Shown here piece by piece: positions 1,966 through 16,970 of a stretch of 17,300 bases of DNA. The position numbers were made by a program, and so were the translations under genes. A model generated the notes under the pieces. It was not told where the DNA came from and searched no databases. It saw only the letters and a list, made by a program, of their open reading frames with translations. Position 1 is the stretch's first letter. Each line of letters opens with the position of its first letter. This stretch comes from a virus (lineage: Duplodnaviria; Heunggongvirae; Uroviricota; Caudoviricetes), in IMG/VR virus record IMGVR_UViG_2541047802_000012, positions 1-17,300 of that record; one strand, given 5' to 3'.

Positions 1966-1993
1966 ACCCGCCGCTGGCGGGTTTTTTTATTTT
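1966..1993 (+). terminator. intrinsic-terminator-like hairpin (CCCGCC-GCT-GGCGGG) followed by T7-A-T4, immediately upstream of the major tail gene
   Basis: Stem 1967-1972 / 1976-1981 with a 3-nt loop, then TTTTTTTATTTT at 1982-1993; read directly from the sequence. Confidence 0.55.
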
Positions 1994-2005: not shown

Positions 2006-2710
2006 ATGTCCTCTAATTTTGAACGTTCTCAGCAGACCAAAGTCATGATCTCGTCTGCACCGGTAACGGCAGAAACGCTGAGTTCTGCCAGTTTTCTTGA
2101 ACTGAGCTGTACGATTAAAGAGGTTCAGTTTACCGCCGGGCAGAAACAGGATATTGATGTCACCACGCTGTGTTCTGTTGAGCAGGAAAATATTAACGGT
2201 CTTGGTGCCGCGTCAGAGATTTCCATGTCAGGCAACTTTTATCTGAATGCTGCCCAGAACGCGTTGCGCAGTGCCTATGACAATGACACCACGTATGGCT
2301 TTAAAGTTATTTTTCCGTCAGGCAACGGATTTACCTTTATGGCAGAGGTGCGTCAGCATACCTGGTCTGCAGGAACCAATGGAGTTGTGGCTGCAACGTT
2401 TTCCCTGCGCCTGAAAGGTAAACCTGTACTGACGACAGAGCCACTGAAAGTGAAGGTCGATTTAAACAGCACGCTGCAGGTTTCTGCCGGAGCGAAACTC
2501 GAAATGGTGGTTGAGGCTGCCGGTGGTGTGCCGCCTTATTCTTATGTCTGGAAGAAAGGTGGTTCTCCTGTTTCCGGACAGACGGCGGCAACGTTCAGTA
2601 AGGCATCAGCAGCATCCGGTGATGCCGGTGCGTATACCTGCGAGATTTCTGATTCAGCAAGCCCGGTTAGCAAGGTGACCTCCACTTCCTGCACTGTTAC
2701 CGTCAGTTAA
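2006..2710 (+). CDS. major tail (tube) protein with C-terminal Ig-like domain
   Basis: AGGAGA 5 nt upstream of ATG 2006. The C-terminal ~90 aa (PPYSYVWKKGG...GDAGAYTCEISD...CTVTV) is a textbook Ig-like fold signature, as found appended to many siphovirus tail tube proteins. Position immediately before the G/GT chaperone pair. Confidence 0.75.
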   Translation: MSSNFERSQQTKVMISSAPVTAETLSSASFLELSCTIKEVQFTAGQKQDIDVTTLCSVEQENINGLGAASEISMSGNFYLNAAQNALRSAYDNDTTYGFKVIFPSGNGFTFMAEVRQHTWSAGTNGVVAATFSLRLKGKPVLTTEPLKVKVDLNSTLQVSAGAKLEMVVEAAGGVPPYSYVWKKGGSPVSGQTAATFSKASAASGDAGAYTCEISDSASPVSKVTSTSCTVTVS

Positions 2711-2724
2711 TGAGGATAGATGTG

Positions 2725-3096
2725 ATGACTAAAAATATCCGTAATCTGGCACTGGCAACGATGTCGGGGTTTCGCCATAAAACTGTTGATGTGCCTGAAT
2801 GGGAAGGGGCAACGGTTGTATTACGGGAACCTTCTGCAGAAGCCTGGTTGCGCTGGCAGGAGATCGTTAAAGCAAAAGATGATGAGACACCGTTATCCGT
2901 TGCGGAGCGCGCCCGCCGAAATCTGGAGGCAGATGTTGAACTGTTCATTGATGTTCTGTGTGATACCGGACTGCAACCTGTATTTTCAGAGGATGATCGT
3001 GAACAGGTGATTGCCGTGTATGGCCCGGTGCATGCGCGGCTTCTTCGGCAGTCTCTGGAACTGATCAGTGATGCCGGTGAGGTTAAAAAAAAGTAG
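2725..3096 (+). CDS. tail assembly chaperone G (short, zero-frame product)
   Basis: Located between the major tail and tape measure genes and ends in a slippery A8G run directly before its stop. GAGGA at 2712-2716 is well spaced for ATG 2725; the ORF track's 2710 start (TAATG overlap) lacks a Shine-Dalgarno but cannot be excluded. Confidence 0.7.
   Translation: MTKNIRNLALATMSGFRHKTVDVPEWEGATVVLREPSAEAWLRWQEIVKAKDDETPLSVAERARRNLEADVELFIDVLCDTGLQPVFSEDDREQVIAVYGPVHARLLRQSLELISDAGEVKKK
3087..3093 (+). other. -1 programmed ribosomal frameshift site A_AAA_AAG joining G to T
   Basis: The heptamer is in the zero frame of G (codons AAA 3088-3090, AAG 3091-3093), one codon before the TAG stop. The -1 frame from 3093 is open (GTA GCG CTT CCG GGG ATG...) and is the frame of ORF 3108-3398. 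A_AAA_AAG is the same slippery heptamer used in E. coli dnaX. Confidence 0.7.
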
Positions 3097-3398
3097 CGCT
3101 TCCGGGGATGCGTTTTCTGATGATGCTGGCGCTCAGGATGGGGCGCACATTGTCAGAGTTACGCCGGGAAATGTCCGCATCAGAAATCATGATGTGGGCA
3201 GAATTTGACAGGTTCAGCCCGCTGGGTGACGAGCGGGCTGATATCCGGGCTGCCCAGATAGTTTCTGCGGTTTACGGTGCGCAGGGTGTCAAAGTCCCAC
3301 TGAATGATGCGCTTCTTCAGTGGGAGAAGGAGCAGACAGAAGGCGTATCAGATCCATTTGCCGGACTGGAAAACGCGCTTTTAATAGTGTCTCAGTGA
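3093..3398 (+). CDS. T segment of the G-T frameshift fusion chaperone (expressed as 2725..3092 plus 3093..3398 after the -1 shift)
   Basis: -1 frame ORF with no independent Shine-Dalgarno. Motif EIMMWAEFDRFSPLGDERADIRAAQI resembles the T domain of lambda-type GT proteins. Conserved G/GT architecture upstream of the tape measure gene. Confidence 0.65.
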   Translation, partial: VALPGMRFLMMLALRMGRTLSELRREMSASEIMMWAEFDRFSPLGDERADIRAAQIVSAVYGAQGVKVPLNDALLQWEKEQTEGVSDPFAGLENALLIVSQ

Positions 3399-3407
3399 GT
3401 CAACATA

Positions 3408-3430
3408 ACCGCTTCGGCGGTTTTTTTTTC
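3408..3430 (+). terminator. intrinsic-terminator-like hairpin (ACCGC-TTCG-GCGGT) plus T9, immediately upstream of the tape measure gene
   Basis: 5-bp GC-rich stem with a TTCG tetraloop at 3408-3421, followed by nine T at 3421-3429; read directly. Confidence 0.55.
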
Positions 3431-3439
3431 GTCCGGAGA

Positions 3440-6400
3440 ATGAGTGTGGCGACATTACGTGAACTGATTATTAAAATCTCGGCAAATTCCCGGTCATTCC
3501 AGTCAGAGATCTCCCGGGCTTCGCGTATGGGGCAGGATTACTACCGTACCATGCAGAACGGAGGCCGGCAGTCCGCTGCTGCATCCCGTGAAATGCGGCG
3601 TGCACTGGCAGAAGTGACGGATCAGATAAATACAGCTAAATCTTCGGCACTGAATATGGCGGGGGCATTTGCCGGAGCTTTTGCTACCGGTCATCTTATT
3701 TCTCTCGCCGATGAGTGGAATTCAGTAAATGCCCGTCTGAAGCAGGCTTCACAGTCCAGTGATGATTTTCAGGTATCACAACGTGAATTAATGGCAATCA
3801 GCCAGAGAACGGGAACGGCGTTTTCTGATAACGCCAGCCTTTTTGCCCGCTCTGCAGCTTCCATGCGGGAGTATGGCTACAGTTCTGAGGAGGTACTGAA
3901 AGTCACCGAGGCGATCTCCACGGGCCTGAAATTATCCGGTGCCAGTACAGCAGAAGCCAGTTCGGTGATCACGCAGTTCAGTCAGGCACTGGCGCAGGGA
4001 GTGCTGCGCGGTGAAGAATTTAACTCTGTGAATGAGAACGGCGATCGTGTTATTCGTGCGCTGGCTGCGGGAATGGGTGTTACCCGTAAGGATCTGAAGG
4101 CCATGGCGGATAACGGAAAACTGACCGCCGATAAGGTTGTTCCTGCACTGATTAGTCAGCTTGGGGCGTTGCGTGATGAATATGCAGCAATGCCTGATAC
4201 TGTTTCATCCTCTGCAACCAAAGTTGAAAACGCCTTTATGGCCTGGGTTGGTGGTGCGAACGAGGCAAGCGGAGTGACAAAGACACTCACCGGGGTGTTG
4301 AATGGTGTTGCAGACAATATTGATACCGTGGCTGCTGCAGCTGGCGCACTGGTTGCCGTCGGGGTAGCCCGATATTTTGGCAATATGGCGTCGTCTGCTG
4401 GATCTGCAACTGCCGGATTAATTACTGCAGCCAGAAACGAAGTGGCTCTTGCTGAAGCGCAACTTCGGGGGACTCAGATAGCAACCGCCAGGGCGCGTGC
4501 GGCGGTTTATCGTGCGCAACAGGCGGTTGTTGCTGCTCGCGGTACCGAAAGGCAGGCCGCAGCAGAAGCGAAGCTGACAGCTGCCCAGGCGTCACTTACC
4601 CGTAATATTGCGGCCAGAACAGCGGCACAGACAACGCTGAATACTGTCACGTCAGTGGGGAGTCGTCTGTTAAGTGGTGCGCTGGGGTTGGTTGGTGGTG
4701 TGCCGGGACTCGTCATGCTGGGGGCGACGGCCTGGTACACGATGTATCAGAATCAGGAGCAGGCCAGAGAATCTGCACGCCAGTATGCCGCAACAATCGA
4801 CGAAATTCGCCAGAAAACGTCGGCAATGTCGCTTCCTGAAGCGTCAGATAATGAGGAAAAGACGCGGCAGGCACTTGATGAGCAAAACAGGTTAATTGAC
4901 GAGCAGAAAAGTAAGATTAAATCCTTACAGGAAAAAATTGCTGGCTATCAGTATGTGCTGGCAAACCCGGGCTGGACAACCGATAACGGTTTTATGATTA
5001 ACCACATGACGTCGGTAAAAACTGTCACAGAAGGGCTTGCAGAAGCAACAAATCAACTGGCAGTTGAACAGTCCCGTCTCACACAAATGCAGGGCAAAGC
5101 GCAATCCATTCAGGATGTGCTTGCCGGGTTGGAGGAGCGACGGGTGGCGTTGATCCGTCAACAGGCCGCTGAACAAAACAAAGCGTATCAGTCCCTGTTG
5201 ATCATGAATGGGCAGCATACCGAGTTTAATCGCCTTCTCGGGCTCGGTAATGAATTACTTCAGCAGCGACAGGGGCTGGTGAATGTACCGTTACGGCTAC
5301 CACAGGCAACCCTGGATGATAAACAGCAGACTGCACTGAATAACAGCGAGCGCGAACTGGCTCTGTCCCGCCTGAAGGGGGAGGCCCGTGAGCGTGCCCG
5401 CCTGGGTTATGCTGCGGATGATCTCGGCTTTGTGGGAGAGGCGTATCAGACAGCCAGACAGAATTATATCAATAACTCACTGGATGCCTGGCGAAATAAC
5501 CAGGCAAATAAACCCAAAGCGCATAAAAAGACCGAAGCGGAAAAAACAGAAGATATTTATAAACGGCTGATTAAACAGCAAAAAGAACAAATAGCACTGG
5601 CAGGGCAGAATACTGAACTGGCTAAGATGAAATATCAGGTCAGTCAGGGCGAATTATCAACCCTGTCAGAAGCGCAGAAAAAAACGCTTTTGCAGAATGC
5701 AGCACTCATCGACCAGAAAAAGATTCGTGAGCAGCTTGCTGCGTATGAGAGCAGTCTGGCGGACAGTAATGCCAGTGCCCGGGCATCTGACGAAGCGCAG
5801 TTGTTGGGATATGGTGAAGGCTCACGGATGCGTGAACGACTCCAGGAAATGTGGAGTATCCGGCAGGCGTTTGAGCAGAAAAATAACGAGCTGCTGAGAC
5901 AGTATCAGGCCGGAGAAATTGAAGAAGCCCTGTGGAAACAGGAGAAAGAACTGAATAAAAAATATCTGGAAGAGCGTCTCAGCGATCAGCAGGATTATTA
6001 TGCAAAGGCCGATGCTTTACGTAATAACTGGAATGCCGGACTCCAGGAGGGACTGACCAACTGGGCAGACAGTGCCACCGATTATGCTTCACAGGCGGCA
6101 GATGCTGTCGTTTCTACGATGGACGGGCTGGTATCAAATATTTCCGATGCACTGGCCGGGAATGTTGTGGACTGGAGGAACTGGGGGAGTTCAGTTCTCC
6201 GGGAAGTTTCAAAAATTCTGATGAATGCAGCCATTGTTAACGGACTGAAATCACTCTCCGGTGCCGGAGGGTGGCTTGGTACGGTCGGCGGATGGATTTC
6301 GGGGGCAGTGGCAAACGCAAAAGGTGGTGTTTACACATCGGCAAATCTGAGTGCTTACAGTAACACTATTGTGGATACACCGACGTATTTTGCTTTTGCG

Positions 6401-6673
6401 AAAGGTGCCGGGTTGATGGGCGAGGCCGGGCCTGAAGCAATCATGCCACTGACACGGGCAGCGGACGGCTCTCTTGGGGTCAGGGCCATTGGAAATGTGA
6501 ATGGTGGCGGTGGATTTGTTTATTCTCCCGTGTATCACATCAGCATTCAGAATCAAGGGAGCAATGGCGAGATAGATGCGCGCTCAGCCAGGGGACTGGT
6601 GGATCTGATCGACAGCAGGGTTGTGTCAATTATGCAGTCATCGCGTCGGGATGGAGGATTGTACAGTGCCTGA
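3440..6673 (+). CDS. tail tape measure protein (about 1077 aa)
   Basis: Very long Ala/Gln/Glu-rich helical ORF in the canonical position. The N-terminal ~250 aa matches the conserved tape-measure N-terminal domain pattern, and the C-terminal region (LRNNWNAGLQEGLTNWADSATD...RDGGLYSA) resembles the lambda H C-terminus as I recall it. Start set at ATG 3440 (GTG 3446 is an alternative) because the 3320 extension overlaps T and runs through the terminator hairpin. Confidence 0.85.
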   Translation: MSVATLRELIIKISANSRSFQSEISRASRMGQDYYRTMQNGGRQSAAASREMRRALAEVTDQINTAKSSALNMAGAFAGAFATGHLISLADEWNSVNARLKQASQSSDDFQVSQRELMAISQRTGTAFSDNASLFARSAASMREYGYSSEEVLKVTEAISTGLKLSGASTAEASSVITQFSQALAQGVLRGEEFNSVNENGDRVIRALAAGMGVTRKDLKAMADNGKLTADKVVPALISQLGALRDEYAAMPDTVSSSATKVENAFMAWVGGANEASGVTKTLTGVLNGVADNIDTVAAAAGALVAVGVARYFGNMASSAGSATAGLITAARNEVALAEAQLRGTQIATARARAAVYRAQQAVVAARGTERQAAAEAKLTAAQASLTRNIAARTAAQTTLNTVTSVGSRLLSGALGLVGGVPGLVMLGATAWYTMYQNQEQARESARQYAATIDEIRQKTSAMSLPEASDNEEKTRQALDEQNRLIDEQKSKIKSLQEKIAGYQYVLANPGWTTDNGFMINHMTSVKTVTEGLAEATNQLAVEQSRLTQMQGKAQSIQDVLAGLEERRVALIRQQAAEQNKAYQSLLIMNGQHTEFNRLLGLGNELLQQRQGLVNVPLRLPQATLDDKQQTALNNSERELALSRLKGEARERARLGYAADDLGFVGEAYQTARQNYINNSLDAWRNNQANKPKAHKKTEAEKTEDIYKRLIKQQKEQIALAGQNTELAKMKYQVSQGELSTLSEAQKKTLLQNAALIDQKKIREQLAAYESSLADSNASARASDEAQLLGYGEGSRMRERLQEMWSIRQAFEQKNNELLRQYQAGEIEEALWKQEKELNKKYLEERLSDQQDYYAKADALRNNWNAGLQEGLTNWADSATDYASQAADAVVSTMDGLVSNISDALAGNVVDWRNWGSSVLREVSKILMNAAIVNGLKSLSGAGGWLGTVGGWISGAVANAKGGVYTSANLSAYSNTIVDTPTYFAFAKGAGLMGEAGPEAIMPLTRAADGSLGVRAIGNVNGGGGFVYSPVYHISIQNQGSNGEIDARSARGLVDLIDSRVVSIMQSSRRDGGLYSA

Positions 6674-12605: not shown

Positions 12606-13205
12606 ATGCGTACATTATGTGCTGTTATTTTGTCCGCAGTAGTCTGGCAGGTCGCCGCTGCTACGCCAGCGAGTGCAGCAGAACATCAGTCCACGCTGAG
12701 CGCGGGGTATCTCCATGCCTCGACGAACGTTCCCGGTAGTGATGATCTGAACGGGATTAACGTGAAATACCGTTATGAGTTTACGGACATGCTGGGTGTT
12801 GTGACGTCATTCAGTTATGCCAATGCCAAAGATGAGCAAAAAACGCATTACAGCGATACCCGCTGGCATGAAGATTCAGTGCGTAACCGCTGGTTCAGCG
12901 TGATGGCGGGGCCGTCTGTGCGCGTGAATGAATGGTTCAGCGCGTATGCGATGGCGGGTATGGCTTACAGCCGTGTTTCGACTTTCTCCGGAGATTATAT
13001 CCGCGTAACTGACAACAAGGGGAAAACGCACGATGTGCTGACCGGAAGTGATGACGGTCGCCACAGCAACACGTCTCTGGCGTGGGGGGCTGGCGTGCAG
13101 TTTAACCCGACCGAATCCGTGGCCATTGACCTTGCTTATGAAGGTTCCGGCAGTGGCGACTGGCGCACTGACGGTTTCATCGTGGGTGTCGGTTATAAAT
13201 TCTGA
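12606..13205 (+). CDS. lom: Lom-like outer membrane beta-barrel protein (Ail/Lom/PagC family), with signal peptide
   Basis: N-terminal signal peptide MRTLCAVILSAVVWQVAAATPASA. The C-terminal IDLAYEGSGSGDWRTDGFIVGVGYKF is identical to the lambda Lom C-terminus as I recall it, and GINVKYRYE matches the Ail/Lom family. GAGAGG Shine-Dalgarno upstream of ATG 12606. Confidence 0.85.
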   Translation: MRTLCAVILSAVVWQVAAATPASAAEHQSTLSAGYLHASTNVPGSDDLNGINVKYRYEFTDMLGVVTSFSYANAKDEQKTHYSDTRWHEDSVRNRWFSVMAGPSVRVNEWFSAYAMAGMAYSRVSTFSGDYIRVTDNKGKTHDVLTGSDDGRHSNTSLAWGAGVQFNPTESVAIDLAYEGSGSGDWRTDGFIVGVGYKF

Positions 13206-15929: not shown

Positions 15930-16970
15930 ATGGTTACAAAAACAGTAATTCCTGATGACATCAAAACGCTAAAATCCGATGTTAGTAAACTAAAAACTGA
16001 TCAAGGAAGCTATGCAACAAAATCATATGTAGACAATAAAACAACATGGAATAGTTATTGCAATGTAATCTATGATCAAAAGGCATTGCCGACCACTGGA
16101 ACTATATTTAGCGGTAAGATTCACTTGTCAAATAAGACAGGAGAAACCGAAAACGCTTATAGTGAGATGTACACCAGAAAAAATATTGACGGTACAAAAG
16201 ATACAATGACAAGGATTGTCACACACAATGGAACAAAAGGTATCTTTTGGGATTTTAGCGATCTTTACGGCGGAACATTAATTTTTCCAGGCAGTGATGG
16301 TTACCTTAAGATGGGGAACTGTCTCATGTCGTATGGTGTGCGGGGAAGTAACGCGCTTATTAAGTTTGACTGCACAGACACATTACAAATCAAATATGCC
16401 AATCATGGGTCAACCATGACATTAAACACACAGGGAACCGCTTATGCTGGTGTTACTGCTCAATTGTGGGGCAACTCCAGCCGTCCTGTTGTTTATGAAG
16501 TCGGTGTTGATGGTGGCGCTTATATGTTCTATGCGCAGAAAAATACCGATAACACCTATATGTTAAGCGTTAATGGTGCATGTCATGCCACCGCATTTAA
16601 CCAGCATTCCGACCGGGATCTGAAAGACAACATTCAGGTGATCGATAATGCAACCGACCGCATCCGTAAAATGAACGGCTATACATACACGCTTAAAGAA
16701 AACGGTATGCCCTATGCTGGTGTCATTGCACAGGAAGCTCTGGAAGCAATCCCAGAAGTTGTAGGTTCCGCAATGAAATATCAGGACGGTGCAAGCGGAT
16801 CGGAAGGTGAAGAAGGTGAACGTTATTACACAGTAGATTATTCTGGTGTTACTGGCTTGCTTGTTCAGGTAGCCAGAGAGTCAGACGACAGAATAACAGC
16901 ACTGGAAGAAGAAAACGCAGAATTAAGACAAAGATTATCTGCAATTGAGGCGGCGCTTGCGTCTAAATAA
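15930..16970 (+). CDS. tail-fibre-like protein with C-terminal intramolecular chaperone / autoproteolysis domain (peptidase S74-type)
   Basis: GGAG 7 nt upstream of ATG 15930. The C-terminal ~120 aa (HSDRDLKDNIQVID...YTYTLKENG...AGVIAQEALEAIPEVV...YTVDYSGVTGLLVQ...ALEEENAELRQRL) matches the conserved S74 chaperone-of-endosialidase pattern, including the Ser-x4-Lys dyad spacing (Ser codon 16608-16610, Lys codon 16623-16625). Confidence 0.7.
   Translation: MVTKTVIPDDIKTLKSDVSKLKTDQGSYATKSYVDNKTTWNSYCNVIYDQKALPTTGTIFSGKIHLSNKTGETENAYSEMYTRKNIDGTKDTMTRIVTHNGTKGIFWDFSDLYGGTLIFPGSDGYLKMGNCLMSYGVRGSNALIKFDCTDTLQIKYANHGSTMTLNTQGTAYAGVTAQLWGNSSRPVVYEVGVDGGAYMFYAQKNTDNTYMLSVNGACHATAFNQHSDRDLKDNIQVIDNATDRIRKMNGYTYTLKENGMPYAGVIAQEALEAIPEVVGSAMKYQDGASGSEGEEGERYYTVDYSGVTGLLVQVARESDDRITALEEENAELRQRLSAIEAALASK

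Follow-up and report, generated by a model that had tools for sequence, protein, structure and literature searches.

A probable -1 ribosomal frameshift of the conserved G/GT type in the tail assembly chaperone genes of an HK97-like Escherichia coli prophage

Two small open reading frames, G and T, lie side by side between the major tail protein gene and the tape measure protein gene of the prophage DNA studied here. The question raised by this locus is whether T is a gene with its own start, as gene callers have it, or the C-terminal part of a GT fusion protein that ribosomes reach by changing to the -1 frame at the end of G. The window, that is, the whole stretch of 17,300 nucleotides that was analysed, comes from a lambdoid, HK97-like E. 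coli prophage and comprises its tail module. Its 5' part encodes the C-terminus of the capsid protein, a head-tail connector, a head completion protein, a gp10-like protein and a tail completion protein. Then follow the major tail protein, the two small ORFs, the HK97-type tape measure protein, homologues of lambda M, L, K, I and J, Lom and the tail fibre genes. The product of the gene upstream of G has sub-threshold Pfam matches to Phage_TTP_11, Phage_tail_2 and Phage_TTP_12, and its counterpart is labelled major tail subunit in related phages. The features of the locus are collected in Table 1.

Table 1. Features of the G/T locus and of the two genes that flank it (positions in the window)
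Feature	Coordinates	Strand	Evidence and remarks
Major tail (tube) protein gene, C-terminal Ig-like domain	2006..2710	+	Pfam Ig_2/Ig_3; upstream neighbour of G
Gene G, tail assembly chaperone, 123 aa, zero frame	2725..3096	+	PF06222 Phage_TAC_1, E 2.4e-58, full length
TAA in the -1 frame	3084..3086	+	-1 translation; shuts the T frame just 5' of the heptamer, 5' limit of the shift window
A8 homopolymer run holding the slip site	3085..3092	+	sequence; length-polymorphic in public assemblies (A7, A9)
Slippery heptamer A_AAA_AAG	3087..3093	+	zero-frame phase, AAA and AAG being zero-frame codons; proposed -1 shift site for tRNA-Lys
T segment in the -1 frame, 101 codons + TGA	3093..3398	+	PF06223 Phage_tail_T, E 4e-19
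G stop TAG	3094..3096	+	directly 3' of the heptamer; next base C
ATG taken by gene callers as a separate T start	3108..3110	+	PGAP CDS WP_244576666.1 begins here
Tape measure protein gene	3446..6673	+	PF06120 Phage_HK97_TLTM, E 1e-93; PF20155 TMP_3; PF09718 Tape_meas_lam_C; downstream neighbour of T

The match of G to PF06222 scores 195.9 bits (gathering cut-off 25), G also matches the tail assembly chaperone family phrog_344, it is 64% identical to HK97 gp13, and the Shine-Dalgarno (SD) sequence GAGGA lies 7 nt upstream of its ATG. The gene ends in the codons GAG GTT AAA AAA AAG TAG (3079-3096). The initial annotation had placed the heptamer A_AAA_AAG in the zero-frame phase, and this reading is correct: its last two codons are AAA and AAG, and TAG follows. 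T matches PF06223 with 69.2 bits (gathering cut-off 25.9), and the two Pfam models follow each other in the order G then T. To which families the pair belongs is unambiguous.

The -1 frame around the slip site reads stop-C-R-stop-G-stop-K-K-V-A-L-P-G-M-R-F. The last of these stops is the TAA at 3084-3086, and from 3087 the frame is open up to the TGA at 3396-3398, so that no stop interrupts it between 3093 and 3108, as had been claimed. The two frames can therefore be joined by a -1 change only within the 10 nt from 3087 to 3096, which are the heptamer and the stop codon, and A_AAA_AAG occupies the only in-phase heptamer position that this overlap allows. An open T segment had been described with 96 codons. 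The open segment stands, and its length has to be corrected, because the extension beyond the slip site comprises 101 codons (3093-3395) and 96 is the count from the ATG at 3108. The predicted GT protein is thus 123 + 101 = 224 aa long. The junction peptide proposed earlier, GEVKKK followed by VALPGMRF, agrees with this fusion. In the 224-position profile phrog_14766, G aligns at positions 1-121 and T at 126-220, and the two are colinear.

We infer from this anatomy that a ribosomal -1 frameshift on A_AAA_AAG, yielding a minority of GT alongside G, is the best explanation of the locus, and we hold it to be very probably correct. In the proposed course of events, most ribosomes would end at the TAG and release the chaperone G, and a minority would slip back by one base on the heptamer. 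The single tRNA-Lys of E. coli (anticodon mnm5s2UUU) pairs better with AAA than with AAG and would re-pair from AAG to AAA, and the P-site tRNA-Lys would shift from AAA to AAA. The next codon after the slip would be GUA (3093-3095), and from there the -1 frame would be read through to 3398. Few heptamers shift as readily in E. coli as A_AAA_AAG (PMC5009743, PMC4066793).

The heptamer itself is not a rare motif. The 17.3-kb window has a single AAAAAAG on its + strand and four on both strands taken together, against 2.8 expected, so there is no overall enrichment. The weight of the slip site comes from its position and its conservation, and the motif count adds none. By direct calculation, any XXXYYYN would stand at the sole in-phase heptamer position with a chance of about 1/256, and one of the three best E. 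coli heptamers with a chance of about 3/16384. Since the same arrangement is kept in relatives, coincidence is ruled out.

A tblastn search with the predicted fusion found 226 phage records, 198 of which cover at least 80% of the query. The full-length matches listed are all in two pieces, as expected of two reading frames. A search of IMG/VR for related loci gave mostly near-identical copies, which are informative on run length, and the deep diversity comes from the tblastn search of phage records; a contig scan with the G protein alone returned only a 249-bp fragment. Ten lineages were compared: the clade of the window, the L072 clade (90% identical), the BP-4795/Stx phages, HK446/HK97, Klebsiella phage P7641, Cronobacter phage ENT39118, Proteus phage Pm34, mEp506, Bordetella phage PHB09 and Burkholderia phage phi1026b. 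The identity of their G proteins to that of the window ranges from 33 to 100%. In 10 of 10 lineages T lies in the -1 frame of G, and that frame opens ahead of the G stop; all ten have an in-phase A_AAG at the same aligned lysine. The -1 layout and the in-phase A_AAG in the ten lineages, together with the membership in PF06222 and PF06223 and the place between the tube and tape measure genes, bear out the claim that this is a conserved tail chaperone frameshift.

The full heptamer differs among these lineages. It is A_AAA_AAG in the window and L072 clades, BP-4795, Pm34, PHB09 and phi1026b, G_GGA_AAG in mEp506 as well as in lambda, and the near-canonical G_GAA_AAG in the HK97 type and in ENT39118. 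In Klebsiella P7641 it is the non-canonical A_GCA_AAG, and TAA follows. Because the HK97 type and P7641 do without a canonical heptamer, re-pairing in the P site is no conserved requirement. As far as the aligned sequences indicate, what stays invariant in the family is neither the full heptamer nor an RNA structure but the in-phase lysine codon of A_AAG, on which tRNA-Lys would slip from AAG to AAA.

By its anatomy the site belongs with the G/GT frameshift that long-tailed phages are known to conserve (Levin et al. 1993 and Xu et al. 2004, as relayed in PMC5009743), in the form of the HK97 gp13/gp14 family, and its layout of heptamer plus stop is already catalogued for E. coli prophages. HK97 gp13/gp14, like the corresponding pairs of HK446, HK106, mEp234 and others, has the same Phage_TAC_1 and Phage_tail_T domains, a 224-aa fusion, the same -1 relation and the aligned Lys AAG. 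In HK97 the pair also has the same place, between the major tail gene and the HK97-type tape measure gene. The HK97 heptamer G_GAA_AAG lies 5 codons before the G stop, whereas the canonical A_AAA_AAG of the window abuts it, and the moron gp15, which lies between T and the tape measure gene in HK97, is absent from the window. When the locus is compared with related G/GT pairs, as the initial annotation had suggested, the records of HK97 and HK446 carry a joined CDS with the note 'translated due to a -1 frameshift'.

A second counterpart is found in E. coli O157. There the prophage tail assembly chaperone cluster A_AAA_AAG_25 (ECs1801) was marked true by Sharma et al. (2014). In this cluster, and in ORF65/ORF66 of BP-4795 and the Stx phages, A_AAA_AAG is followed by TAG as in the window, the layout is the same -1 arrangement, and G and T are 68% and 67% identical to those of the window, respectively. 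The two types differ in that the A run of the ECs1801/BP-4795 type has 6 bases (AGAAAAAAG) as against 8 in the window, and in that Ile stands at the position of Met 3108.

The stop that abuts the heptamer raises the possibility of a somewhat different route, a 'shifty stop'. With tRNA-Lys on AAG (3091-3093) in the P site and the slow UAG-C in the A site, the P-site tRNA alone would slip from AAG to AAA, and no tandem slip would occur. Stops 3' of slippery runs reportedly act as enhancers (Weiss et al. 1987, as cited in PMC5009743). The stop directly follows the heptamer as TAG in the window, in BP-4795-type prophages and in Proteus Pm34, and as TAA in Klebsiella P7641, which keeps only A_AAG before it and in which the upstream codon GCA cannot re-pair. 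However, the G stop lies 1-10 codons further downstream of the slip site in lambda, HK97, mEp506 and the Bordetella and Burkholderia phages, so that the family can do without an adjacent stop. A tandem slip would give the same product, and on sequence data the two routes look alike. We regard the slip of the P-site tRNA alone as possible but rather unlikely. The stop directly 3' of the heptamer is one feature of the context that may be important, as a slow UAG in the A site could favour a P-site slip.

The locus departs from the dnaX type of frameshift site. In E. coli dnaX, an SD-like stimulator lies about 10 nt upstream and a strong stem-loop downstream, and the site shifts at about 50% and makes a shorter product; the window has GAGGU only 3 nt upstream, which is not conserved, has no conserved hairpin, and would make a longer product. 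Of the elements of a dnaX-type cassette, the window has neither an SD-like element about 10-14 nt upstream nor a conserved stem-loop or pseudoknot 5-9 nt downstream. The GAGGU at 3079-3083 was considered as an upstream stimulator and rejected, as it is too close to the heptamer and is lost in the L072 clade.

A check for a stimulatory structure within about 10 nt after the slip site had also been suggested, and we found none that was convincing in the folds, in the relatives or in their consensus. A 77-nt fold that starts 6 nt after the heptamer has -31.7 kcal/mol (z -2.5, 4/200 shuffles) in the window only. The 47-nt fold of the window has a z of +0.6, and 47-50-nt folds of seven relatives range in z from -1.9 to +1.4. 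The RNAalifold consensus contains only a 6-bp hairpin, 36 nt downstream, in the codons of the conserved ALRMGR motif and without compensatory changes. No Rfam family reached its gathering score anywhere in the window, and the matches round the slip site were at chance level. A downstream structure was thus rejected as stimulator, because the shorter folds, the seven relatives and the consensus contain nothing conserved. This lack of a stimulator structure in the window agrees with Sharma et al. (2014), in whose cluster A_AAA_AAG_25 the hairpin is no stabler than the local average (ddG per nt 0.020 +/- 0.023).

In the reporter of the same authors, heptamers that lacked stimulators reached no more than about 10 times the background of 0.055%, which is well under 1% (PMC4066793). 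By analogy with this reporter, the efficiency of the shift in the window could be well below the approximately 4% of lambda, unless the context, for example the adjacent stop, helps.

The functional model is taken from lambda. In lambda about 4% of ribosomes shift, G and GT are made at about 30:1, and this ratio is critical and sensitive to the thiolation of tRNA-Lys (PMC5009743, PMC3296357). Both G and GT bind to the tape measure protein, and the tube protein is brought in by the T domain (PMC5009743, PMC3296357). That G and GT are needed for tail assembly and are absent from virions is known for lambda only (PMC5009743). Lambda gpG/gpGT occupies the corresponding place in the gene order, shifts by -1 onto a PF06223 T domain with a tRNA-Lys that goes from AAG to AAA, and needs no elaborate stimulator; it differs in its heptamer, G_GGA_AAG, which lies 5 codons before the stop. 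BLASTP detected no similarity between G of the window and lambda G, and gave only an E-value of 0.22 between the two T proteins. Kinship to lambda rests on gene position, the Pfam family of the T domain and mechanism only; the membership in PF06222 is that of the window's G.

If the analogy with lambda holds, many G and few GT molecules would coat the tape measure protein, the T domain would recruit the major tail protein, and the frequency of the slip would set the G:GT ratio. The initial annotation had assigned to this locus a low GT:G ratio and a part in tube assembly; both are carried over from lambda (PMC5009743, PMC3296357) and may apply here in the same way.

We next consider how T could be translated by itself. 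A separate T protein would arise by independent initiation, or by termination and reinitiation, at the ATG at 3108, which is 12 nt past the G stop, or at the conserved ATG at 3120. PGAP and several GenBank records call T in this way. The Met encoded at 3120, which belongs to an F-L-M motif, is kept in all relatives, and in the Burkholderia and Bordetella phages the G stop overlaps the equivalent ATG as TGATG, an arrangement typical of translational coupling. Against this, the SD sequences of both ATGs are weak or misplaced compared with the real starts in the window. The accepted starts form anti-SD duplexes of -6 to -10 kcal/mol at 3-9 nt. At 3108 the GGGG directly abuts the ATG (0-nt spacing) with a duplex of -4.5 kcal/mol, a value that 29% of random positions reach, and at 3120 a duplex of -5.7 kcal/mol lies at 11-12 nt.

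The ATG at 3108 is also not kept. Close relatives have GTG, ATA or ATT in its place, and in distant ones the position is taken by Ile or another residue. Upstream of Met 3120, in contrast, the peptide of the T frame from the slip site to this first conserved Met, P-x-x-x-F-L-M-x-L-A-L, is kept across relatives, and the codons before the Met change synonymously (CCG/CCC/CCT, TTT/TTC, CTG/TTA). Since this stretch is conserved at the protein level and most relatives have no start codon in it, translation in the T frame enters from upstream. The in-phase A_AAG and the open -1 frame in all ten lineages also speak against separate initiation, and in the account of Levin et al. (1993), as relayed in PMC5009743 and PMC3296357, lambda T is made only as GT. 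A separately initiated T is therefore highly improbable in our estimate, and the ATG at 3108 is probably not a real T start.

T has no independent initiation signal of its own. The initial annotation had stated that T lacks a start signal. This holds insofar as no usable SD is present and the ATG varies among relatives; there is an ATG at 3108, though, and what is missing is the ribosome-binding site. It had also held that gene callers are wrong about the start of T, and RefSeq (PGAP) does start a 'phage tail assembly protein T' at the counterpart of the ATG at 3108, which is probably unused.

The heptamer is part of a run of eight As, so the possibility that the frame is changed before translation has to be weighed against the ribosomal shift. 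If RNA polymerase added one untemplated A on the A8 run, the resulting A9 mRNA would have G and T in one frame and encode the identical 224-aa GT. An A9 template does encode exactly the predicted GT. Transcriptional slippage is efficient at runs of 9 A/T in bacteria, and some IS elements and human apoB are reported to have eight-A runs that are productive (PMC1088944, PMC5009743). The junction peptide would be the same as that of the ribosomal shift, and mass spectrometry of the junction cannot separate the two.

The run of the window, on the other hand, falls short of the usual bacterial threshold of an A/T run of at least 9, and selection against such runs typically starts at 9 nt (PMC1088944). 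The two-frame layout is kept in other lineages whose A runs count just 3-7 bases (GGGAAAG, GGAAAAG, A6 and A7), so the mechanism of the family cannot depend on slippage of the polymerase. Further, the G after the run (A_AAA_AAG, not A_AAA_AAA) is invariant, and this G matters for tRNA-Lys and not for the polymerase. As the source of GT, transcriptional slippage is improbable, although on the A8 run of the window it could contribute to GT beside the ribosomal shift.

The length of the run varies in public assemblies, of which rare ones have A7 or A9. The exact 224-aa predicted fusion was found as a called gene in NCBI and Logan assemblies, and all ten of the contigs with the called fusion that were fetched (L095-L104) have A9 in place of A8, so that G and T are fused in the DNA. 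At least two different variants of the major tail gene are present among these ten contigs. Among the first 80 IMG/VR copies, A7 was found in two (L051 and L071), and exact-pattern counts in IMG/VR gave at least 119 copies with A8, none with A9 and four with A7. The A tract is indel-prone, and the two-frame A8 state strongly predominates (at least 119 of 123 IMG/VR copies), which fits selection for mostly G.

These variants may suggest that the A8 tract is a site of slippage at three levels, namely ribosomal -1 slippage, RNA polymerase slippage and replication slippage, with a heritable switch between A8 (mostly G) and A9 (GT fused). Replication slippage would give the A7, A8 and A9 alleles, and an A9 allele would still yield both proteins, as polymerase slippage on nine As is efficient. 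If this were true, the G:GT stoichiometry would be a tunable, phase-variable trait. We consider such a switch quite improbable, and the ribosomal -1 frameshift on A_AAA_AAG stays our reading of the predominant A8 state.

Of 5,426 complete E. coli genomes, 901 contain sequences that match the G/T segment. The RefSeq records sampled carry a free-standing 'tail assembly protein T' or 'DUF4035 protein' and leave out the 224-aa GT. Automatic annotation misses the frameshift, and the main value of this analysis is the correction of the annotation, which is a matter of routine curation; beyond that correction there is nothing new. For the biology of these phages, the G/T locus of this prophage is one more probable instance of a frameshift that is conserved in long-tailed phages.

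The tail assembly chaperone gene G and the -1 frame segment T are followed here at their slip site (A_AAA_AAG in the window) in relatives. In Klebsiella phage P7641 (locus L005, 696-705) the site reads A_GCA_AAG and TAA follows at once, with a G/T overlap of 10 nt. HK446 (L003), HK97 (L093) and Cronobacter phage ENT39118 (L007) carry G_GAA_AAG. The -1 G/T layout is thereby retained without a canonical heptamer in some relatives.

At the slip site (window 3085-3092), public assemblies differ in the number of A residues in the run. Eight A residues are the commonest, being found in at least 119 of the 123 exact matches in IMG/VR. Among the loci from public assemblies, L095-L104 have A9, which joins G and T in the DNA as one frame, and L051, L071 and L224-L227 have A7, in which T falls in the +1 frame; these A9 and A7 runs may be either true mutations or homopolymer errors. 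The exact 224-aa G-T product is on deposit as CDK90654.1, KZP42445.1 and STQ49536.1. A G match was also found in a Pleomorphochaeta sp. assembly, on a 249-bp contig with a coverage of 0.86 (L012, NZ_JBMDYO010000178.1). Its protein is 100% identical to the N-terminus of G of the E. coli prophage in the window, and contamination of that assembly is most likely.

The start of the T domain (window 3114-3147, columns 60-95 of alignment A2) has the sequence TTTCTGATG..GCTGGCGCTC.GG.TGGGGCGCAC, which codes for FLMxLALRMGRT and contains a 6-bp hairpin. Its nucleotides are nearly invariant from E. coli to Bordetella phages, several third codon positions included. No covariation was found in these columns; therefore, the conservation could be caused by protein constraint together with codon bias, or else by an RNA or DNA signal.

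Two terminator-like hairpins are located in the window (Table). At the place matching the one downstream of T, a putative terminator is annotated in the HK97 and HK446 records; there it comes after a moron (gp15), whereas the window is without that moron. A weak Rfam match to isrK, a prophage-borne sRNA, covers 3343-3427 and ends at this same hairpin; it scores 14.4 bits, where the gathering score is 50, and has an E value of 1.2. The isrK match is at chance level and is probably driven by the hairpin. The other hairpin separates the tail completion gene from the major tail gene, within what is expected to be a single late operon.

Terminator-like hairpins, antisense ORFs and other genes in the window
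Feature	Position	Strand	Description
Terminator-like hairpin	3407-3430		AACCGCTTCGGCGGTT then T9; in the 47-nt T-tape measure gap
Second strong terminator-like hairpin	1966-1992		ACCCGCCGCTGGCGGGT then T run
Antisense ORF, 461 aa	10151-11536	-	inside J gene
Antisense ORF, 236 aa	7001-7711	-	opposite L gene
Lom/Ail outer-membrane protein gene (moron)	12606-13205		after J
Tail fibre protein gene	15930-16970		after side tail fibre gene; C-terminal Peptidase_S74 intramolecular chaperone domain

Neither antisense ORF had a Pfam match, and both probably do not code for protein, being shadows of the sense genes. The Lom/Ail gene and the Peptidase_S74 tail fibre gene are typical lambdoid cargo.

In the G/T family, the sequences compared indicate that the in-phase A_AAG is the only universal element.
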